From: a virus
Reading direction: 5' to 3' (one strand)
Virus genome (UHGV): UHGV-0120889
Length of the DNA: 64,000 nucleotides
Of the stretch, positions 12,650 through 32,630 are shown one piece after another (within the stretch, counting starts at the first letter, position 1; the number at the start of each line of letters is the position of its first letter). The notes beneath the pieces were generated by a model that saw only the letters and a list, made by a program, of their open reading frames with translations, was not told where the DNA came from and did not search any database. The position numbers and the translations under genes were made by a program.

Positions 12650-14206
12650 TTAATTTTCCATGTTGGATATGGAATTATCTCTGGTTGATGACATCTTAGA
12701 AGTGCCGTTGCCAGTGGATCCTGCAGCCATTCCATCACCAGCCCTACTGATGTCCTGGCCCAAGAGCTTCATCAGCTCTTCCTGATCCATGTCCTCGTCA
12801 AATCTTTCATCAAACCCGCCTACTTCAAGAATCTTATTAATTACTGCAGGAGTTTTTGGCAAGTAACCTACAGCACCGATCCTCTGGACAAACTTGGAGA
12901 AGCTCTCCATATCCACTTCTTCAATCAGACCAGGTTTCAGTTTAGGCATATCATCATCTTCAAGGATGATACCATTCAATGCCAGAAGCTGCGGAATAAG
13001 ATCTTTATTGAAGGCCTCAGTGATAATATCTATATCACGCTGAACAAAATGACCATGGATAGACTGTTTTGACTCAGACAGAGAGAAGGACCCAACGTTA
13101 TCGTTACCGAGGTTAATAAAGCCAGCACCGAAACGGTCAAGAATCGCCTTCTTACGGGCATCAATCAAATCTTTAGTGGAATACTGCTTACCCATACCGT
13201 CAACCCCCTTCAGGGTCATGGAGTAAAGCTCTTTACCAGACTTATCTCTATCAGACGGAAGTATAAAGAAACTTTGCTCACCACTATGGGCGTTTGCTGC
13301 GTCAAGCATAAGGTCTGCAACCATTCTCCCTTCCATTGAATTCGGGTCAATGCTGGCCTTGTTCAAAATATTGGAAGGAATTTTCAGCTCAAGCACACCA
13401 CCAAGGTCTTTGGAACAGCCAACAACCTCAAGGTTTTCAATCAGAACTTTCTCACGGAAAGATCTGTAGCAACCTATCATCGGTGACACACCTGCAGGGT
13501 TAGATTCTGTTCCTGACAGGGTCATGAGCATAAGCTTTTTAGCAGGGATGAAAATTTCAGGCTCATTAAAGCCTTTTGAAGGCATTGCAGCAAGAGGTCC
13601 AGCCCAGCGTGCATTCTGAGTGTTTAGAAATGCATTAGGTGATTGATAAATACCTGTCAGTGTTCTACTATTCTTGTCAAAGACAAACGGCTCTGATCTG
13701 GACAAACTGGCCTGAGGTCGGAATGCAATTTTATCAATAAGAAGCATCCCGGCATATTTACCTTCTTTCTCTCTGCGGTATACTTTCTCAAACAGTGAAA
13801 AACCATACTCGTTAAAGGTAGCTGCACTTCTTGCAATATCTCGAAGAGTTTGTTGGTTTGCCAAATTACGCAAAGAATACTCTATAAGCTCGGCAGCTTT
13901 CTTAGAGTCTTCACTTTTAACATTATAAAGGATCTTAAAATCATTAAATGCTTTCGTGATGAAAACATATTTTGTATCTAAGGCAGTAGCAACTGTGGAA
14001 TCACATTTCATAGTCTCCACTGTAGCAATCAGCTGAGGCCAACGCAATTCCTCAACCATCATAGATTGCGATTCTGCCATAATTTGGGAAAGTGCGCCAG
14101 AACCGATCTCACTCATACGAACATTATGAGTTGGTGCGCCTGCGTTCCCAGATTTATTCACAGTTTTGGCTGTGGCGTTGTGTTTCCTGCGGTTCTTTTT
14201 GGACAC
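12650..14206 (-). CDS. portal protein (518 aa)
   Basis: Large ORF between terminase and head-maturation genes; size typical of portal; synteny-based. Confidence 0.65.
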   Translation of the reverse strand: MSKKNRRKHNATAKTVNKSGNAGAPTHNVRMSEIGSGALSQIMAESQSMMVEELRWPQLIATVETMKCDSTVATALDTKYVFITKAFNDFKILYNVKSEDSKKAAELIEYSLRNLANQQTLRDIARSAATFNEYGFSLFEKVYRREKEGKYAGMLLIDKIAFRPQASLSRSEPFVFDKNSRTLTGIYQSPNAFLNTQNARWAGPLAAMPSKGFNEPEIFIPAKKLMLMTLSGTESNPAGVSPMIGCYRSFREKVLIENLEVVGCSKDLGGVLELKIPSNILNKASIDPNSMEGRMVADLMLDAANAHSGEQSFFILPSDRDKSGKELYSMTLKGVDGMGKQYSTKDLIDARKKAILDRFGAGFINLGNDNVGSFSLSESKQSIHGHFVQRDIDIITEAFNKDLIPQLLALNGIILEDDDMPKLKPGLIEEVDMESFSKFVQRIGAVGYLPKTPAVINKILEVGGFDERFDEDMDQEELMKLLGQDISRAGDGMAAGSTGNGTSKMSSTRDNSISNMEN

Positions 14207-14238
14207 AAGCTTTACCCCTCAAAACAGTATAACAAAAT

Positions 14239-14258
14239 AGCCCTCGTGTTAGAGGGCT
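14239..14258 (-). other. stem-loop between terminase and portal genes
   Basis: AGCCCTC-GTGTTA-GAGGGCT hairpin; weak U-tract so terminator function uncertain. Confidence 0.3.
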
Positions 14259-14308
14259 AGTATCTCCGATTACTCTATTCTACCACATCTAATTAAGATT
14301 GGCAACAC

Positions 14309-15397
14309 TTAGATAAAACGCTTGAACATAGAAGGTGATGAGATTGATGGAATCACACAAGGAAGTGCTACTTCCTCTTTCTCCAGGAAATTAATAGCAG
14401 AAGCTACACAGTCAGCCCAGTCGTCTTTTCTGTTAAATGTTGATCTTTCCCCGTTGAATTTTTCAAGTTCAGTCAGAAATGCTTCCAGAGTATCAGGATG
14501 GAAACTGGATTTTACAATCCTCACCATTCCTTGTTGGGCAAGATTGGCAAAAGGTGAGAACCTTGTCAGTTTAGATTTGTTGGAAGGCATTGGGTCTTCT
14601 TCAACCCTAAACCCTTCGGCAAGCAAGGATCTGGAGGAGGTTAAGAACTCACTCTTACCTGCCTGACCGGGGTCCACAGAGAATACGATTATACAATCAT
14701 CACCATCAAACTGCGCCTGTTTCCTGATGATCACATCTCGTTCACCAGCCTTTTTACAGAACTTGCCTTCTAGACCTGTGGAATACCTCCCGTCATCCAC
14801 GTTCTCAGGACAATAATCACCGGACAGGTAATAAAAGCCGTCGCTATCTTTACTTACCTTAACACTGGCGGTAAAGTCAGGAAATTTATTACCGGAAGTT
14901 CTCTCGGTTCCTGCCTTATCCCATGCCCTGCAAGATACTGATCCAAGGGGTACTCTATCGGCATCACGAAGGAAAGATCTTTGAAAATAGTTTGCGCCCT
15001 CAGGCTTTGCAAACCAGTTACCATGAAGAAGCTGAGCTTTTTCCAGTTCCGGCAGACCTTCAAGGAAAGCAAGGTATTCTGGGTTGTCTCTTAAGCAAAC
15101 AGGATTATCGAATATTGTTGCGCCTATAAACGAGAATGACAACGGTCTTGGCTTGATCTCCACACCAAGTCCGTTAACCGTGGTGTATTTCTCTATCAAC
15201 TCTTCTTTAGAGTCCCCCCAGATAAATTCACCGTCGCGTCGGATAAAATATCTTTTCTTACCGCATTTCTCCGGATCTGGATACCCTTCATCGTCCAACC
15301 ACCACCTAACCAGTTTGGCAAGCATGTGTTCTGAATCGGGGTTACAGCTGATAACCATTCTTGATGGATACTTTGACTGAGATCGCAGACGAGACAT
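14309..15397 (-). CDS. terminase large subunit, C-terminal (nuclease) segment; 5' boundary approximate (exon 2)
   Basis: Same strand, immediately downstream of the ATPase segment after a ~340 bp ORF-less gap; frame open upstream of first Met to 15433. Confidence 0.75.
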   Translation of the reverse strand: MSRLRSQSKYPSRMVISCNPDSEHMLAKLVRWWLDDEGYPDPEKCGKKRYFIRRDGEFIWGDSKEELIEKYTTVNGLGVEIKPRPLSFSFIGATIFDNPVCLRDNPEYLAFLEGLPELEKAQLLHGNWFAKPEGANYFQRSFLRDADRVPLGSVSCRAWDKAGTERTSGNKFPDFTASVKVSKDSDGFYYLSGDYCPENVDDGRYSTGLEGKFCKKAGERDVIIRKQAQFDGDDCIIVFSVDPGQAGKSEFLTSSRSLLAEGFRVEEDPMPSNKSKLTRFSPFANLAQQGMVRIVKSSFHPDTLEAFLTELEKFNGERSTFNRKDDWADCVASAINFLEKEEVALPCVIPSISSPSMFKRFI

Positions 15398-15746
15398 CAG
15401 ATAGTCTATCTGCTCCCATTCGAATTGTGTCGTTTATGTTCGGGCAAGGTCGCTAGTCTTGCCCCGCCATTTTCAGGCAGCTGCATGTCTCCATGCAGAC
15501 CAGACTATATCTTATAAGCGACAACAACCGCTTATCCTCCCGTTTCGAATCGCTTGATTCTACGTCTTTCGACTAGTCGTTGAACGTTCATCCTCTCGGA
15601 TGCTTCGCTGCGGATTATCTAAATTAACACACTGTTACCATACCTTCGATCTCTCTTCGAAGCCTCTATCATGTTACCATGACAGGTTGGTGGTATTAAT
15701 AGTAAAGATTTCCCCGCAATTAGGGAGGTTTTACGAGAGCTACAAA
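15398..15746 (-). other. ORF-less intervening sequence inside terminase large subunit gene (putative self-splicing intron)
   Basis: No ORF in any frame; multiple perfect hairpins (CTGCATG/CATGCAG, CTTCGA/TCGAAG, GGGCAAG/CTTGCCC); separates Walker-A/B ATPase part from C-terminal part. Confidence 0.5.
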
Positions 15747-16175
15747 TTAACCCTCATCGAAGCAAACCATGGTGTACTCAAGCCCTTGATGGTTAAGCTT
15801 ATCTTGTACATACTCCATGTGGCAGTATTTTACAACAGCTCCCTTTTTGCTTCTATCCCACTTGCCAGTGTTCGGATCAAACCGTGGAAAAATGAACTTA
15901 TGATCCTTCTCTCTGAACTTTGGCTTAATGTTTTCAGGCAGATCACTATAAATAGCTACCGCTTTAGGCCATAGTCCACCCTCACCTTCCAACTGCGGGG
16001 TTGTTCTTCGGAACATAACCACAGAGCTGTGGGGGTCATCAATAATTTTAAGTGGCATCAATTGCAAGAGGAACGACTTGCCAGACCCTGCGGCACCGCC
16101 GATTACCAAAATATCTGCATCGTTTTCGAGGATCATCTTCTGCTTTTCAGAACACGGTCCGTAAATCTTAGACAT
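15747..16175 (-). CDS. terminase large subunit, N-terminal ATPase segment (exon 1; 3' boundary approximate)
   Basis: Walker A VIGGAAGSGKSF and Walker B-like VCFDE motifs characteristic of large terminase ATPase domain. Confidence 0.8.
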   Translation of the reverse strand: MSKIYGPCSEKQKMILENDADILVIGGAAGSGKSFLLQLMPLKIIDDPHSSVVMFRRTTPQLEGEGGLWPKAVAIYSDLPENIKPKFREKDHKFIFPRFDPNTGKWDRSKKGAVVKYCHMEYVQDKLNHQGLEYTMVCFDEG

Positions 16176-16462
16176 TAACCGCTCTCCTTTGGAAACAGTG
16201 TTCTAATATAGTCTTGCAAAATGATCAATTTAGCTCTATCATTGCTACAAGACAGATTATTATCCCTCATAATGCCAGAATTCACTGCATCTGGCGCACC
16301 TTTCTTCAAAGGCATAGCTTTAGCAGGTGGTTTCATGGCACCTTCCGGGGGTTTAACAATCAACCTTCCTACATCCGGAGGGTCAATCTTGTATTCTCTC
16401 TCAACGTTGGTTGCACACCCACATAATAACAAGCACACAATAAACAGTGTAGCAACTCTCAT
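16175..16462 (-). CDS. o-spanin (Rz1-like outer-membrane lipoprotein)
   Basis: Signal peptide with lipobox-like LLLCGC, Pro-rich mature region, 4-bp overlap with preceding Rz-like gene. Confidence 0.6.
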   Translation of the reverse strand: MRVATLFIVCLLLCGCATNVEREYKIDPPDVGRLIVKPPEGAMKPPAKAMPLKKGAPDAVNSGIMRDNNLSCSNDRAKLIILQDYIRTLFPKESG

Positions 16463-17524: not shown

Positions 17525-17623
17525 GGTGCTAGGTGATGGAATCGAACCACCTATGTATTCAACGACTACCTCGTCTATTTTCAGGATTAAAAATCCTCGC
17601 CCTTGCCAAAGGGCTTACCTAGC
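17525..17623 (-). tRNA. atypical tRNA-like gene (possible anticodon UUU; ~30-nt extra arm)
   Basis: Acceptor GCTAGGT/ACCTAGC, D-arm GCCC..GGGC, T-arm GGTGG-TTCGATT-CCATC present, but 99 nt long with oversized variable region and no encoded terminal A. Confidence 0.3.
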
Positions 17624-28140: not shown

Positions 28141-28423
28141 GAGATCTGTAAAAGAGAAATTCGATAAGACAGCTTTTGTATTCGATACACCTCTGGACGA
28201 TATCATCAGGGGTATGCAAGCCTTGTATCGGAAGGCTGAATCTGAGCAGTTGTCTGAATCAGAACTTTACTGGCTTGGTTGGTGGGAGTTAAACCTGCCT
28301 AAAGCTGAAAGCTCTTGTCTGAGAACTGTTAAAACGTGCGCCCAAGAAAACGCTGCACTTGGAATCTACCACAAAAGGAAAAGATCAACAAAAAGCTCTC
28401 CAAGAAAGACTAAAAAGTCTTGA
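28130..28423 (+). CDS. hypothetical protein (97 aa)
   Basis: ORF track; basic C-terminus. Confidence 0.4.
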   Translation: MIAKRSVKEKFDKTAFVFDTPLDDIIRGMQALYRKAESEQLSESELYWLGWWELNLPKAESSCLRTVKTCAQENAALGIYHKRKRSTKSSPRKTKKS

Positions 28424-28449
28424 CAAAAGTGTTATTAATCTGATATTAT
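28420..28449 (+). promoter_or_regulatory. sigma70-type promoter
   Basis: TTGACA (28420) - 18 bp - TATTAT (28444). Confidence 0.55.
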
Positions 28450-28482: not shown

Positions 28483-28791
28483 ATGCTTAAAATTTTTATT
28501 GTTGAAGATAAAGATATTGTCCAGTTGTATGCAAACGAGAATCATAAAGGTATGATTCTGAAGAAGGCAAGCAACCTTCATGAAAACACAATTCAACCTG
28601 GCGATGTAATTAAGATCTGTGGTTATATGATACCGGACTCCTTGATGAAAATAACCCACCACTGGGGGTCTAATCCGTTCCTTTTTGAAAAGTATTGGGA
28701 TGTTGAGTCACTTATTGCAGGGAGTGATGATGCATTCCATTACAGCATCCAACCATCTTGCAGAATAACTAACAGGAGGGTCTTTGAGTAG
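28483..28791 (+). CDS. hypothetical protein (102 aa)
   Basis: ORF track; AGGAGAA RBS. Confidence 0.45.
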   Translation: MLKIFIVEDKDIVQLYANENHKGMILKKASNLHENTIQPGDVIKICGYMIPDSLMKITHHWGSNPFLFEKYWDVESLIAGSDDAFHYSIQPSCRITNRRVFE

Positions 28792-29923
28792 AGAATATCC
28801 ACTTATTGAGTCCATAGATTGTCTGGCTGATCTTCTTGAACCTGACGCTATAGTTTATTATGACTTCGATCAGGTTGCATATCAAGCTGCAGCAAGTTGT
28901 GAAAAAAGGACAATTGAGGTAACACACAAAGCCTCCGGACGTAAGAAGATGTTTAAAACACGAACAGAGTTCTGGGGGCGGCAGAAGAACACCGTTGGTG
29001 GTTGGCTAAAAGCTGAGAATACCAACCGTGAAGCCGCATGTAAAAAGTCTGGTAAGGAGTTTATTCCGTGGACACGTGAAGATTTTGATGTCTTGGATAT
29101 CCAAACACCTGACCCTGTAGAGAACTGCTTGCACACAATAAAATGTAAGGCAAATGCAGTTCTTAACTATCTTGGTATTCCGGAAGAGCGATGTGTCGGG
29201 GTGTTGGGAGGCACAGGTAACTTCAGACTAGATCTTCCAATGCCGGAAAGATACAAAGCCAACCGTAACAATACTCTTCGACCACTGCTGCTTGGAGATG
29301 CAAGACAGTATCTCCAAAAGCAGTATAATGCTCAAGTGATCAACGGTATCGAGGCTGATGACTGGTTAGCTATCCAGCAATTTGAAGGTTGGAACCACTA
29401 CCAAAAAACAGGTAAGTTCAACAAGTTTATTATCTCTATTGATAAGGACCAAAGAACACTACCGGGGCTTGTGTTCGATCCCATGCGAAACGATAAGGGA
29501 GATTTTGTAAGGGAAACCCCTATGCTGATCGATAACGGTATGGGGAACATCTTCATGAAGCCTAATGGAGAGGTTGGTGGTTACGGAATGCTGTTCTTCG
29601 GATACCAAATGCTGTGTGGTGACTCTGCTGACAACATCAAGCCGTATCAAGGACTTATCGGTAAGGGTAAGTTCGGAGATGCCTCAGCATTCTACCTACT
29701 GTCTCAGTGCAGCACTCCAAAGGAGATGTGGGTGGCTATTATTGATCAGTACAAGAAGTGGTTCCCGAAAGGTGTTGTTAAGTATACTGACTTCAATGGT
29801 ATTGATCGTAGAATCTCCGTAGGTCAATGGATGAGTATAATTTTTGACTGTTTGTATATGAAGCGAACATTCAATGATCAAACAAAACTTGTTAACGTTC
29901 TTAGAAATGTTGGAGCAATTTGA
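28784..29923 (+). CDS. 5'-3' exonuclease / flap endonuclease (FEN family)
   Basis: GIEADDWLA and LCGDSADNIKPYQGLIGKGKFG (H3TH GDxSDNIPGV-like) motifs. Confidence 0.7.
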   Translation: MSREYPLIESIDCLADLLEPDAIVYYDFDQVAYQAAASCEKRTIEVTHKASGRKKMFKTRTEFWGRQKNTVGGWLKAENTNREAACKKSGKEFIPWTREDFDVLDIQTPDPVENCLHTIKCKANAVLNYLGIPEERCVGVLGGTGNFRLDLPMPERYKANRNNTLRPLLLGDARQYLQKQYNAQVINGIEADDWLAIQQFEGWNHYQKTGKFNKFIISIDKDQRTLPGLVFDPMRNDKGDFVRETPMLIDNGMGNIFMKPNGEVGGYGMLFFGYQMLCGDSADNIKPYQGLIGKGKFGDASAFYLLSQCSTPKEMWVAIIDQYKKWFPKGVVKYTDFNGIDRRISVGQWMSIIFDCLYMKRTFNDQTKLVNVLRNVGAI

Positions 29924-30255
29924 TGACTAAAAATTCTGTAGATAACGCAATTATGGAAGCTGTTTTTGAGGATGATCACACAACAGGGACACTTAAAACA
30001 AAAAATACATTCGTTGTTGCCACAGGTATGTGGCGGTTGTATGAAGATGACACCATTTCATACATCCTGTACACGGATGATTACGCAGATGACCGTGTAT
30101 GGTCTGCTGTTTTAAAAGAGGATTGTGAGCTGATTGAGGGCGAGCGGTTATGCATGTTCACCAGTGTGGAAACAGATGTTAAGCTTTGCTCTCTCGTATT
30201 GTTCAAAGATAAGGCTTATGCTCCTGATGAAGGAGAGGAGGATGAGGAAGCATGA
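29920..30255 (+). CDS. hypothetical acidic protein (111 aa)
   Basis: ORF track; C-terminal EGEEDEEA. Confidence 0.4.
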   Translation: MMTKNSVDNAIMEAVFEDDHTTGTLKTKNTFVVATGMWRLYEDDTISYILYTDDYADDRVWSAVLKEDCELIEGERLCMFTSVETDVKLCSLVLFKDKAYAPDEGEEDEEA

Positions 30256-30881
30256 GAGAGCGTCTATTATCCATAGACCAGTCGTTGACACACACAGCTT
30301 GCGTTGTATGGGACGATGGAAAGCCTGTTCATAAGGTTGTGTTACGAACTCAAAGCTCATCTGCAAAAGAGAAGAAACCAGGGACGGTTTCTTTTGCAAC
30401 AGCTGCTGAGCGTATTGACTGGATCTGCAAACAGGTCAGATATTATATCCACACGCACGGCGTTGACACTGTAGTTATGGAAGGGCTTTCCTTTGGATCA
30501 CGCGGGGATGCCACACGTGAACTGGCTGGGTTGTTTTACGGTCTTGAAGTTATGCTTTGGGATGCCTTAGCTGATTGTGAAAATGACGGCCTGTTTAAGG
30601 TCCACACAGTGACACCAACAACTGCCAAAAAGTTTGCTCGTGGTCATCTTCCTGAGGAACTTGCTTTCGAGGAGAAGAAAAAGCTTGACAAAAAGACAGG
30701 TAAAGAGCATACTGTGAAGAAACCTGTTACGATGGATAAAAAGTTGATGGTTAAGGCCTGCGAAGTATCTGAACCTGGGTTCCTAGATGGGATCAATTTG
30801 GTACAAGGTAAGGCCGATCTCGCAGATGCTTATTGGATAGGCAGGGCGCATCTGGAGGGATTATCGCAAAGCGTAAAATAA
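30252..30881 (+). CDS. RuvC-like Holliday junction resolvase
   Basis: RuvC-pattern acidic residues: LLSIDQS (D), VVMEGLSF (E), DLADAYWIGRAHL (D) with overall RuvC-like spacing. Confidence 0.55.
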   Translation: MRERLLSIDQSLTHTACVVWDDGKPVHKVVLRTQSSSAKEKKPGTVSFATAAERIDWICKQVRYYIHTHGVDTVVMEGLSFGSRGDATRELAGLFYGLEVMLWDALADCENDGLFKVHTVTPTTAKKFARGHLPEELAFEEKKKLDKKTGKEHTVKKPVTMDKKLMVKACEVSEPGFLDGINLVQGKADLADAYWIGRAHLEGLSQSVK

Positions 30882-31438
30882 GAAAGAAAGCTGTCAAAGC
30901 CCCCGTTCATAACGGGTGGTTAAAAGATTCTAAGGACATAGCCAACTTTCGAAAAGAATTGTCAGAGGAGCAGGATGGTCTTGATCCTATCTTGTGCGAG
31001 CCACTTCGTAAGCCTTGTTTGGATCATGACCATCTGACTGGTCGTTGCAGGGGTGTTTTGTCCCAATGCACTAATACCTTTGAGGGGTATGTGCTTAAAT
31101 ACTGGATGAAATACTGTAACGAGTATACAGATTGCAGTTTATCAGAGGCGTTGCGCCGGATGGCTGACTATTTGGAGAAAGACTACAGCGACTTCCCGCT
31201 CCACAAAAACTACAGAGATGATATGACAAAGTTCTTGAGGAGATGCTCTAAAGCTACGATCATTGCACGAGCAGAATCAGATTTCAATCTTGTCATTAAT
31301 CCGGAGTGCACCAAGCATGAGGCTATTGAGTTCTACATGCAGGAGTTTATAAAGAAAACTGAGGAGAGAGATTTCTATGGGGATGAAAAAGGTATTCAAT
31401 CCTTGCGATTCAGTTCTGATCAGGATGAAATACCGTAA
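30833..31438 (+). CDS. endonuclease VII-like (T4 gp49-type) protein; start uncertain
   Basis: CEPLRKPCLDHDHLTGRCRGVLSQCTNTFEG matches endo VII H-N-H/zinc motif (LDHDH...RG.LC..CN); no clean ATG, TTG at 30833. Confidence 0.5.
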   Translation: MDRQGASGGIIAKRKIRKKAVKAPVHNGWLKDSKDIANFRKELSEEQDGLDPILCEPLRKPCLDHDHLTGRCRGVLSQCTNTFEGYVLKYWMKYCNEYTDCSLSEALRRMADYLEKDYSDFPLHKNYRDDMTKFLRRCSKATIIARAESDFNLVINPECTKHEAIEFYMQEFIKKTEERDFYGDEKGIQSLRFSSDQDEIP

Positions 31439-31598
31439 CTGGAAAGGTGTTGTTGCAGATCGCTGCGTTACTGAGCCTAATTTATGGTTTGGCTCTACAG
31501 AGTATCATAAAGAAGAGCAATGGTTGATGCGTGCCTTCGATGTAGACAAGGGCGAATATCGTGACTTCGCTTTAAAAGACATTCTTCAGTTTTACTAA
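31377..31598 (+). CDS. hypothetical protein (73 aa)
   Basis: ORF track; overlaps 3' end of previous gene in another frame. Confidence 0.3.
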   Translation: MGMKKVFNPCDSVLIRMKYRNWKGVVADRCVTEPNLWFGSTEYHKEEQWLMRAFDVDKGEYRDFALKDILQFY

Positions 31599-31610
31599 GG
31601 AATCTTAACG

Positions 31611-32594
31611 ATGATGACAAAGTTAACTCTTGAGCAAATTTTAACACTAAAGCAACAGGGATACACTAATAGACAAATTGCTCGTGAATTTTTAGGCCGT
31701 GAGTCACGTGAGAGCTGGATCCGACTACAGCTTAAACGTGCACAAGAGAATATGTCAGAGATTCTAGGAGAAGCAACGGAGCGCTTCCTTGAAGAGCACA
31801 AAGGTGCTAAAGTTTGGGTGTATGATACAGAGACATCTCCAACAAACGGCTGGTTCTTTGGGCACTATAAGACCAACATTCAAACCTGCGGTATTGAAAT
31901 TATGCCCTACATGCTAACTTTCGCAGGTAAGTGGTTAGACAGTCCTAGTGTGGTTGACTGCGCTCTTCCTGATTACAAAATGTGGGATGAGGATATTCAC
32001 AATGATCTCGAATTGATTCAGGATTTGTGGTATTATCTGGATAAATGTGATGTCGCAGTAGCCCACAATTCAGGTTTTGACTGTGGGTGGGCCAACCAAC
32101 GATTTGCATTTCACGGATTGCCTCCAACAAGCCCCTACAAAGAGGTTGACACCCTTAAAATGATCAAGAAGGCATTCCGTTTGAATGCAAACACTTTGGA
32201 GTATGCATGCAAATACTTCCAACTTGCCCGACAGAAACTGATTGACCACACATTTGAAATGTGGATCAAGTGTGTTCACGGTGATCTTGAGGCGTTTAAA
32301 CAGATGCGGGAGTACAATGTTGGCGATATCCTATCTCTGGAAGGCCTGTATTTGCTGGCTCGCCCGTTTGCTAAGCAGCACCCCAACATGTCATTGTACT
32401 ACCAGGATGAGGAGCCAAAAGTTCGTTGCCCACGCTGTGGTGGAGAACACCTTCACGAGGAAGAAGCTTTGGCGTATACTCAACTGAGTGCATTTAAAAC
32501 ATACCGCTGCGAAGGTTGTGGATCTGTTGTTCGTGACCGTAACAACATCCGCACCAGAGAAGAAATGAAAAATACCCTGATTCAGATAATCTAA
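31611..32594 (+). CDS. DnaQ-like DEDD 3'-5' exonuclease with N-terminal HTH and C-terminal zinc ribbon
   Basis: Exo I VYDTETS, Exo II AHNSGFD, Exo III YNVGD; N-terminal QQGYTNRQIAREF HTH; CPRCGG...CEGCGS. Confidence 0.55.
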   Translation: MMTKLTLEQILTLKQQGYTNRQIAREFLGRESRESWIRLQLKRAQENMSEILGEATERFLEEHKGAKVWVYDTETSPTNGWFFGHYKTNIQTCGIEIMPYMLTFAGKWLDSPSVVDCALPDYKMWDEDIHNDLELIQDLWYYLDKCDVAVAHNSGFDCGWANQRFAFHGLPPTSPYKEVDTLKMIKKAFRLNANTLEYACKYFQLARQKLIDHTFEMWIKCVHGDLEAFKQMREYNVGDILSLEGLYLLARPFAKQHPNMSLYYQDEEPKVRCPRCGGEHLHEEEALAYTQLSAFKTYRCEGCGSVVRDRNNIRTREEMKNTLIQII

Positions 32595-32602
32595 CAATTA
32601 TA

Positions 32603-32630
32603 GGGAGGCTTGCGCCTCCCTTTTCCTTTT
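32603..32630 (+). terminator. rho-independent terminator
   Basis: GGGAGGC-TTGC-GCCTCCC perfect hairpin followed by TTTTCCTTTT. Confidence 0.75.

Follow-up and report, generated by a model that had tools for sequence, protein, structure and literature searches.

We analysed a stretch of 64,000 nucleotides (nt) from the viral genome UHGV-0120889 (hereafter the window, to which all positions refer), in which a gene for a RuvC-like nuclease (open reading frame 1, ORF1) is directly followed by a gene for an endonuclease VII (EndoVII; ORF2). Over the 1.8 kb that span this gene pair, three Escherichia phages, slur16, nimi, and WalterGehring, share 99.9% identity with the window. A total of 121 phage records match the locus at 90% identity or more, and all of them are rV5-like (Vequintavirinae, genus Vequintavirus). 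Judged by its sequence, the window is an rV5-like Vequintavirus, an Escherichia coli phage (myovirus), and its counterpart in the rV5 reference (NC_011041) lies at about 44.65-108.65 kb. The gene pair appears to form a conserved cassette, in which EndoVII is probably initiated from a near-cognate AUC codon located inside the RuvC-like gene. The features of the two genes are the following:

30252..30881, plus strand: RuvC-family nuclease gene, ATG start, 209 amino acids (aa).
30276-78 (D9), 30480-82 (E77), 30816-18 (D189), and 30825-27 (D192), plus strand: catalytic residues of the RuvC-like protein, from an alignment of 29 homologs.
30833..31438, plus strand: endonuclease VII gene in its usual GenBank form, TTG start, 201 aa, with a 3' end that overlaps the next gene by 62 nt.
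30866..30928, plus strand: Lys/Arg-rich N-terminal tail of EndoVII, AKRKIRKKAVKAPVHNGW, delimited by alignment, predicted to be disordered and absent from T4 gp49.
31019..31087, plus strand: beta-beta-alpha-Me catalytic core of EndoVII, L63-G85, with D64, H65, H67, N81, and E84, invariant in 29 homologs.

The ORF1 product was assigned to phrog_159, 'RuvC-like Holliday junction resolvase', in the PHROGs database (E 2e-40). Its AlphaFold (AF2) model had a predicted local distance difference test score (pLDDT) of 92.5, and the top 12 Foldseek matches of this model were RuvC structures (E 2e-7 to 2e-4, template modelling (TM) scores of 0.71-0.77 by target). The best was that of T. thermophilus (4ld0; E 2e-7, TM 0.75), and the RuvC proteins of D. 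radiodurans, P. aeruginosa, phage bIL67, and E. coli were also found. Mitochondrial Ydc2 came next after the RuvC structures, and RNase T appeared only at E 5e-3. E77, D189, and D192 do not vary among the 29 RuvC-like homologs, and D9 is retained by at least 90% of them; the four residues form a D-E-D-D tetrad in RuvC order. The D...E...DxxD spacing is that of the RuvC signature, and the C-terminal 'D-x-A-D-A' helix that belongs to the same signature is present as well. No direct match to this protein was found in Pfam or NCBIfam, sequence searches against the PDB gave no meaningful E-value, and a profile reached the RuvC of the PDB only at E 0.61; the Pfam RuvC family (PF02075) was matched by 4 of the 29 homologs, all distant ones (best E 1.8e-6). 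Because these direct searches yielded nothing useful, membership in the RuvC family rests on the fold, the active site, and the PHROG assignment.

Like the RuvC resolvases of E. coli (1hjr), T. thermophilus (4ld0), and phage bIL67 (4ktw), the ORF1 product combines an RNase H-like fold and the RuvC topology with the D-E-D-D tetrad. It exceeds cellular RuvC by about 50 residues and contains two additional hairpins, a beta-hairpin near residues 24-48 and a strongly basic one at residues 135-160, and its sequence similarity to cellular RuvC is too low for Pfam; unlike for cellular RuvC, no RuvAB partner is implied. In GenBank, the gene is labelled 'hypothetical protein', 'RNaseH', 'Holliday junction resolvase', or 'RuvC-like Holliday junction resolvase'. 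Several records thus name it RNaseH or ribonuclease H, and it could be asked whether the protein is an RNase H-like enzyme that serves a different purpose, for instance the removal of primers or flaps, and has no functional overlap with EndoVII. The proximity of genes for a 5'-3' exonuclease and a DnaQ-like exonuclease would be compatible with such a role, as would the two insertions and the missing Pfam and NCBIfam matches. However, every one of the top structural matches is a genuine RuvC resolvase, phage bIL67 RuvC and Ydc2 included, the signature is that of RuvC, and the Pfam RuvC family is matched by distant homologs; another job of this kind seems unlikely. Phage RuvC enzymes are known as promiscuous branch cutters that act on various branched DNAs (PMC3864405).

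The profile searches proposed by the first-pass annotation identified the second gene as an endonuclease VII gene. The ORF2 product matches Pfam Endonuclease_7 (PF02945) with 31.6 bits, above the curated cut-off of 23.6 (E 1.5e-7), and belongs to phrog_423, endonuclease VII (E 2e-37). A profile built from 29 homologs matched T4 EndoVII (1e7d) at E 3e-14 over T4 residues 12-155 of 157. The AlphaFold (AF2) model (pLDDT 83.5), in which disorder is predicted only for residues 1-20 and 183-201, matched the T4 structures 1e7l, 2qnf, and 1en7 in Foldseek (E 6e-7 to 5e-6, TM 0.67-0.75) over 151-156 aligned columns of 157. The full T4 architecture was found, that is, the N-terminal helix, the nuclease core, and the C-terminal helical (dimerisation) domain, the last of which is matched in homolog P0082 by Pfam PF09124. 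Residues D64, H65, H67, N81, and E84 correspond to T4 D40, H41, H43, N62, and E65, a numbering confirmed by the T4 mutant chains N62D and H43N. The motif on which the gene had first been recognised was only partly correct: LDHDH is present at residues 63-67 (31019-31033), but the second half, read as RG.LC..CN, is absent, the actual sequence being RGVLSQCTN.

A homing-type HNH enzyme had been considered in its place at the outset. In favour of a mobile enzyme of this type, the ORF2 product has an HNH/beta-beta-alpha-Me core, and other HNH homing endonucleases are encoded in the genome (rv5_gp066 and gp087). The other evidence speaks against it. The next Foldseek match after the T4 EndoVII structures was the HNH enzyme Hpy99I at E ~1, and the other HNH structures were at that level or worse, whereas the match to T4 EndoVII is full-length in both profile and fold and includes the C-terminal domain. 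Moreover, the position of the gene is fixed across genera: it is syntenic in every relative examined rather than sporadic, and no insertion into any host gene was seen. A homing endonuclease at this position is hardly credible. We conclude with high confidence for the two assignments together, from sequence and structural models, that the ORF1 product is a RuvC-family nuclease that looks active, having a DEDD metal site on an RNase H-like fold, and that the ORF2 product is a beta-beta-alpha-Me nuclease, namely an endonuclease VII of the T4 gp49 type in full length. The initial reading of two junction-resolving nucleases of different families encoded back to back was therefore upheld, by fold and tetrad for the RuvC-like protein and by profile and fold over nearly the full length of T4 gp49 for EndoVII. 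T4 EndoVII resolves Holliday junctions and other branches, mainly in packaging, and is also able to cleave forks that have stalled or regressed (PMC3016281). The ORF2 product is homologous to T4 gp49 (1e7d, 1en7, 2qnc) over almost its whole length and has the catalytic residues and the C-terminal helical domain in common with it; in contrast to the T4 gene, ORF2 lies in an early-looking replication operon, directly behind the RuvC-like gene, and lacks a canonical, well-placed start codon.

The arrangement is widespread and not a product of chance, the gene order being shared by 121 Vequintavirus records and by several other genera. A RuvC-like gene directly precedes the EndoVII gene in Vequintavirus, Mydovirus (BIS47), Seunavirus (4MG), and several metagenomic (IMG/VR) lineages. 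The pair is also adjacent in Pseudoalteromonas phage H101, where the stop and start codons overlap in a classic ATGA, and in Vibrio phage 495E54-1. In Certrevirus and Aeromonas phage TS9, one ORF is inserted between the two genes. The ORF inserted in Certrevirus encodes 214 aa (lineage L005, Cronobacter phage PBES02, 1810-2454; also L020). The annotated EndoVII start of Certrevirus (the GTG in WVSG) removes conserved residues, and a GTG located 1 nt past the upstream stop fits better.

With RuvC-like identities down to about 30%, both genes are intact in all pair-bearing relatives except Raoultella phage Ro1. Because distant genera have inherited the two genes together and kept them intact, both are very likely under selection and probably not redundant, contrary to the earlier view that carrying both resolvase types is redundant on its face. 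In Ro1 (L017, MG250486; locus at about 1816-2435), a 1-nt deletion relative to Klebsiella phage KNP2 (GTGAAGGC to GTGAAGC) breaks the frame of the RuvC-like gene and leaves EndoVII intact.

By homology, both proteins would cut branched DNA. Their roles would be non-identical, one of them for instance resolving recombination or replication intermediates and the other debranching concatemers before headful packaging. Such a split between packaging-debranching and repair is plausible by analogy; a separate timing of the two nucleases is argued against by the fact that both genes share one replication/recombination operon. The pairing itself is not new, as the families are well known and some GenBank records name a 'Holliday junction resolvase' and a 'recombination endonuclease VII'. 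A literature search for rV5 together with RuvC and EndoVII found no paper on the pair, and the rV5 genome paper mentions neither the pair nor the start codon.

The start of EndoVII is less straightforward. The features that bear on it are the following:

30833..30844, plus strand: TTG GAT AGG CAG; nine isolated relatives and L007 have TAG in place of the CAG (30842-44), which closes the TTG frame.
30854..30858, plus strand: GGAGG, a Shine-Dalgarno-like core within the RuvC-like gene near its 3' end, separated by 4 nt from the downstream ATC 30863; GGGGG in L019.
30860..30865, plus strand: ATT 30860 and ATC 30863 in the EndoVII frame; ATT is the start of rv5_gp093 in NC_011041, and ATC is the proposed main initiation codon.
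30875..30881, plus strand: A_AAA_TAA at the RuvC stop codon, the only candidate for a -1 P-site slip into the EndoVII frame, conserved within the genus.
IRKKAVKAPVHNGWLKDSKDIANFRK: EndoVII residues 17-42, part of what the product would lack if the start were TTG 30959.

The open frame of ORF2 begins at 30812 and is the -1 frame with respect to ORF1. The first-pass annotation had reported an overlap with no clean ATG, and this is what we observed: the two genes overlap by 49 nt, TTG 30833 is the only canonical start in the ORF2 open frame before residue 43, and neither ATG nor GTG is present there. Three different EndoVII starts are annotated in GenBank, namely TTG 30833 in most records, ATT 30860 in the rV5 reference, and TTG 30959 in ECP2303, EduardKellenberger, and Mangalyan. 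Across the more than 120 genomes concerned, at least two of these three annotations cannot be generally right.

The usual annotation may nevertheless hold for the window. In that case, EndoVII would start at TTG 30833, by means of ribosomes translating or terminating on the RuvC-like gene, the Gly-Gly-x-Ile encoded around GGAGG and ATC (GG-x-I) would be a plain part of the tail, and the phages with TAG would have moved their start. Three lineages have a start codon at -49, namely the window and L022 with TTG and L008-11 with GTG, the TTG frame is open in at least 84 records, and the canonical start positions clearly drift among lineages, being found at -49, -43, -31, -19, +8, +11, +14, +17, and +23, and also at +44. 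However, TTG 30833 has no upstream Shine-Dalgarno sequence and is located in the loop of a predicted, non-significant hairpin, and the extra residues that it would add, MDRQGASGG, have no counterpart in the homologs with canonical starts. Furthermore, the nine viable isolates and L007 close the TTG frame by TAG and gain no new canonical start. The change from CAG to TAG is silent in the RuvC frame (GGC to GGT); an exact 41-mer search returned TAG in 9 records and CAG in at least 84. The isolates that carry TAG come from several laboratories, and L007 is a metagenomic contig. An amber suppressor tRNA that would allow readthrough of TAG was not detected, the CTA anticodon being present in none of the 7 tRNA genes of the window. 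We regard initiation at TTG 30833 as doubtful, even for the window.

The codons downstream of TAG behave as coding sequence. Over the 26 codons from the RuvC stop to TTG 30959, with the TAG carriers included, variable sites at codon positions 1, 2, and 3 of the EndoVII frame number 5, 3, and 17. Pairwise synonymous to non-synonymous differences after the RuvC stop are 192:65 in the EndoVII frame as compared with 40:215 and 16:249 in the other two, which indicates that this stretch evolves as coding sequence. These values bear on a second alternative, an N-terminally truncated EndoVII of 159 aa made from TTG 30959 where the TTG at -49 is closed, and possibly also in the window. TTG 30959 is the next canonical start and is the one annotated in the three GenBank records named above, but a start there would delete the conserved N-terminal helix (residues 33-46, pLDDT >90), which aligns to helix 1 of T4 EndoVII, and the 26 codons upstream of it are under purifying selection in the EndoVII frame, in the TAG carriers as elsewhere. 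Truncation of this kind is very improbable.

Other relatives lack a usable canonical start as well. In Seunavirus and Mydovirus, there is no ATG, GTG, or TTG in the EndoVII frame from the upstream stop to a GTG at +41/+44, and the intervening codons show 66 synonymous to 30 non-synonymous differences, versus 0:82 and 13:68 in the other frames. In L019, the first canonical EndoVII start is found only at +131. What these phages have in common with the window is a short string at 30854-30865: GGAGG (GGGGG once), four nucleotides, and ATC, constant in all of the approximately 15 lineages with EndoVII in the -1 frame. The RuvC codon that supplies the A of ATC varies (TTA, ATA, GTA, CTA, AAA, or TCA), and this A therefore appears to be held by the EndoVII frame. 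A gap of 4 nt between GGAGG and the start is also the commonest in the rV5 reference (6 of 16 genes), and the neighbouring 5'-exonuclease gene reads GGAGG-GTCT-TTG. In homologs that start with ATG, the Met directly precedes the basic cluster (for example MRTRKRKK, MARRKRTKKK, and MTRRKRARR), in the same place as ATC here (M-AKRKIRKK). Put together, the sequences present a near-cognate codon at the proper distance from a putative Shine-Dalgarno element, while the TAG carriers, Seunavirus/Mydovirus, and L019 have no canonical start that could be used.

AUC 30863 is favoured because of the closure by TAG, the coding-like codons behind it, the invariant GGAGG-N4-ATC, the modal spacing, and the position of Met in the homologs. 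Translation of EndoVII would thus begin within the final 20 codons of the RuvC-like gene and proceed in the -1 frame, with initiation probably at AUC 30863, 4 nt past the GGAGG at 30854-58. Coupling to RuvC translation is likely, since AUC lies inside the RuvC-like gene. AUU 30860 would be a poorer neighbour of AUC, and TTG 30833 at best an optional extra start in the phages that retain it. A weak start coupled to RuvC translation could keep the dose of a potentially toxic nuclease low. The start of the rV5 reference, ATT 30860, was considered in its own right and found less likely than ATC: only 1 nt separates it from GGAGG, and L007 has TTT in its place, whereas ATC is found throughout and at the preferred 4-nt spacing. 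That AUC or AUU provides the main EndoVII initiation is put forward tentatively, as a near-even call that leans slightly to the negative.

Natural AUU starts are known from E. coli infC and pcnB, where a near-cognate AUH codon stands behind a good Shine-Dalgarno sequence and expression is low or regulated. The EndoVII gene resembles them in having a near-cognate AUH behind a good Shine-Dalgarno sequence, and the rV5 reference even annotates ATT; it differs from them in that the conserved codon is AUC and lies within an upstream gene. We know of no established natural AUC start in bacteria or phages, and a literature search for AUC/ATC start codons in phages returned nothing relevant.

Several points weigh against this explanation. 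AUC is a very poor initiator in E. coli (about 0.1-3% of AUG), and IF3 discriminates against it. The conserved GG-x-I could be a peptide motif instead of a Shine-Dalgarno element followed by a start codon: the GGGGG of L019 still encodes Gly-Gly, and in the Vibrio phage the Ile is retained although in-frame ATGs lie upstream of it. In addition, Glu and Ser codons of RuvC constrain part of the GGAGG...TC string. An ATG, GTG, or TTG is present upstream of GGAGG in L023/24, L025, L008-11, L022, and the window, and upstream canonical initiation may be the rule where it is available. As to the pair, the evidence that the two nucleases are probably non-redundant is their conservation, and the deletion in Ro1 may be either a sequencing error or a natural loss that would hint at the dispensability of the RuvC-like gene.

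Another way to translate EndoVII without a start codon would be a programmed -1 ribosomal frameshift at A_AAA_TAA (30875-81), aided by the upstream GGAGG, that yields a RuvC-EndoVII fusion of about 394 aa. EndoVII would then have no start codon of its own and be made wholly or partly by the -1 slip, as a 'two-headed' resolvase with both active sites whose ratio to free RuvC is set by the efficiency of frameshifting. EndoVII is indeed in the -1 frame in every lineage where it lies directly behind RuvC, and the rV5 genus, 4MG, L012, L013, L015, L016, L023, and L026 have A_AAA_N at the RuvC stop or close to it. Both E. coli dnaX and B. subtilis cdd are cases of -1 frameshifting stimulated by a Shine-Dalgarno sequence, with a spacing of 10 nt in dnaX. 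The locus resembles them in having an internal GGAGG (13-16 nt upstream of the slip site) ahead of A_AAA_N near the stop, with the downstream frame at -1. Unlike in those genes, however, the slippery site varies from lineage to lineage, the 16-nt spacing exceeds that of dnaX, there is no conserved downstream structure, and no fused homologs were found in the sets described below. The slippery site is absent in BIS47 and L019, which also lack canonical starts, as well as in L008-11, L025, and L027, and the EndoVII of the Vibrio phage is in the +1 frame with an ATG. No conserved stimulatory structure was found: the hairpin at 30898-30919 begins 17 nt past the stop and is not conserved, and no Rfam family was detected in 30000-31700. 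Frameshifting would also leave the selection on ATC, upstream of the putative slip site, without an explanation.

No in-frame RuvC-EndoVII fusion was seen among 47 EndoVII homologs (129-201 aa) and 33 RuvC-like homologs (up to 230 aa), nor in the best 150 of 1176 representative matches from 1.84 billion proteins. A frameshift at the RuvC stop is improbable on these grounds, and the same low standing applies to a two-headed enzyme. One metagenomic protein of 446 aa, P0158, was inspected as a candidate fusion and rejected, as it is an EndoVII split by a LAGLIDADG intein-like insert. This insert of about 300 aa, with a weak LAGLIDADG match, lies within the catalytic LDHxH motif and looks like an intein in a resolvase gene. 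Overall, the explanation that we find best, and hold to be probable to a modest degree, is a conserved two-gene cassette in which EndoVII is initiated from the near-cognate AUC.

The EndoVII of the window also departs from T4 gp49 in two structural respects, as it has no Cys4 zinc site (C23, C26, C58, and C61 in T4) and carries an extra Lys/Arg-rich N-terminal tail of 15-30 residues. Ser77 and Thr80 align with the T4 zinc ligands C58 and C61, and the N-terminal CxxC (T4 C23 and C26) is missing too. None of the 29 EndoVII homologs has a Cys at the columns of C58 and C61, and both CxxC motifs are lacking in 174 of 196 EndoVII homologs and representative clusters. A lineage-specific zinc site made of C55, C62, C72, and C79 was examined and rejected as a family feature, the four positions being occupied in 2, 23, 21, and 17 of the 29 homologs. 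The relatives have a median of 8 Lys and Arg among their first 25 residues. By these alignments and disorder predictions, the protein is a member of a large sub-family that is zinc-less and has a disordered, basic N-terminal tail.

The gene pair is part of a plus-strand replication/recombination block with the order 5'-3' exonuclease (28784..29923), a 111-aa ORF, RuvC-like, EndoVII, a 73-aa ORF, DnaQ-like 3'-5' exonuclease, and N6-adenine methyltransferase. The other features of this block are the following:

28420..28449, plus strand: strong sigma-70-like promoter, TTGACA-18-TATTAT, which is 'P93' of the rV5 reference annotation and the probable start of the operon.
31377..31598, plus strand: 73-aa gene, phrog_3715, overlapping the last 62 nt of EndoVII, with weak WYL/SH3-like Pfam matches (E ~0.02).
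32602..32621, plus strand: intrinsic terminator-like hairpin with a T-run after the DnaQ-like exonuclease gene, the probable end of the operon.

Because the promoter and the terminator-like hairpin bracket the block, the RuvC-like and EndoVII genes are most likely co-transcribed. A promoter-like sequence, TTGACA-17-CATACT (10/12 matches), is also found within the RuvC-like gene at 30685-30713 on the plus strand, about 150 nt upstream of the EndoVII start region; this mere consensus match could supply a separate EndoVII transcript. A gene of 65-73 aa directly 3' of EndoVII is found in nearly all relatives, including BIS47, 4MG, PBES02, and metagenomic ones, and this conservation suggests that its product may be a functional partner of EndoVII.

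Additional observations concern the window and the records compared with it. A 99-nt tRNA-like gene at 17525-17623 on the minus strand was reported by ARAGORN with a 4-base anticodon (atcc) and scored 35.5 bits for the Rfam tRNA family (gathering score 29). Its predicted folding is good (z = -3.7); the variable arm is long and the anticodon arm atypical. It is not annotated in the rV5 reference, where its place is between trnT and trnS. Twenty GenBank records of the MG0656xx series (e.g., MG065676, MG065644, and MG065690), titled 'Campylobacter phage' with Campylobacter jejuni as host, are 97-99% identical to E. coli rV5-like phages over window positions 29900-31700; it seems that either their hosts were mislabelled or the phages are coliphage contaminants. 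The gene for the terminase large subunit (gp065/gp066) is in three segments in the rV5 reference, with an HNH homing endonuclease in one intervening segment (PMC3606486), and by alignment its counterpart in the window is at about 13330-16180 on the minus strand.

Three results go beyond the existing records: the common start annotation of EndoVII cannot be general, a GGAGG-N4-AUC signal is conserved, and a zinc-less, basic-tailed sub-family of EndoVII can be recognised. The sub-family is large and uncharacterised, with a basic tail instead of the zinc site to which the stability of the T4 fold is ascribed. That resolvases of two types stably occur together provides a tractable system in which to ask why a phage needs more than one. 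If GGAGG-N4-AUC is a real start, it would be a rare natural AUC start, conserved across a phage subfamily, on a probably toxic nuclease, and would offer a clean test case of how non-AUG initiation and translational coupling tune expression.

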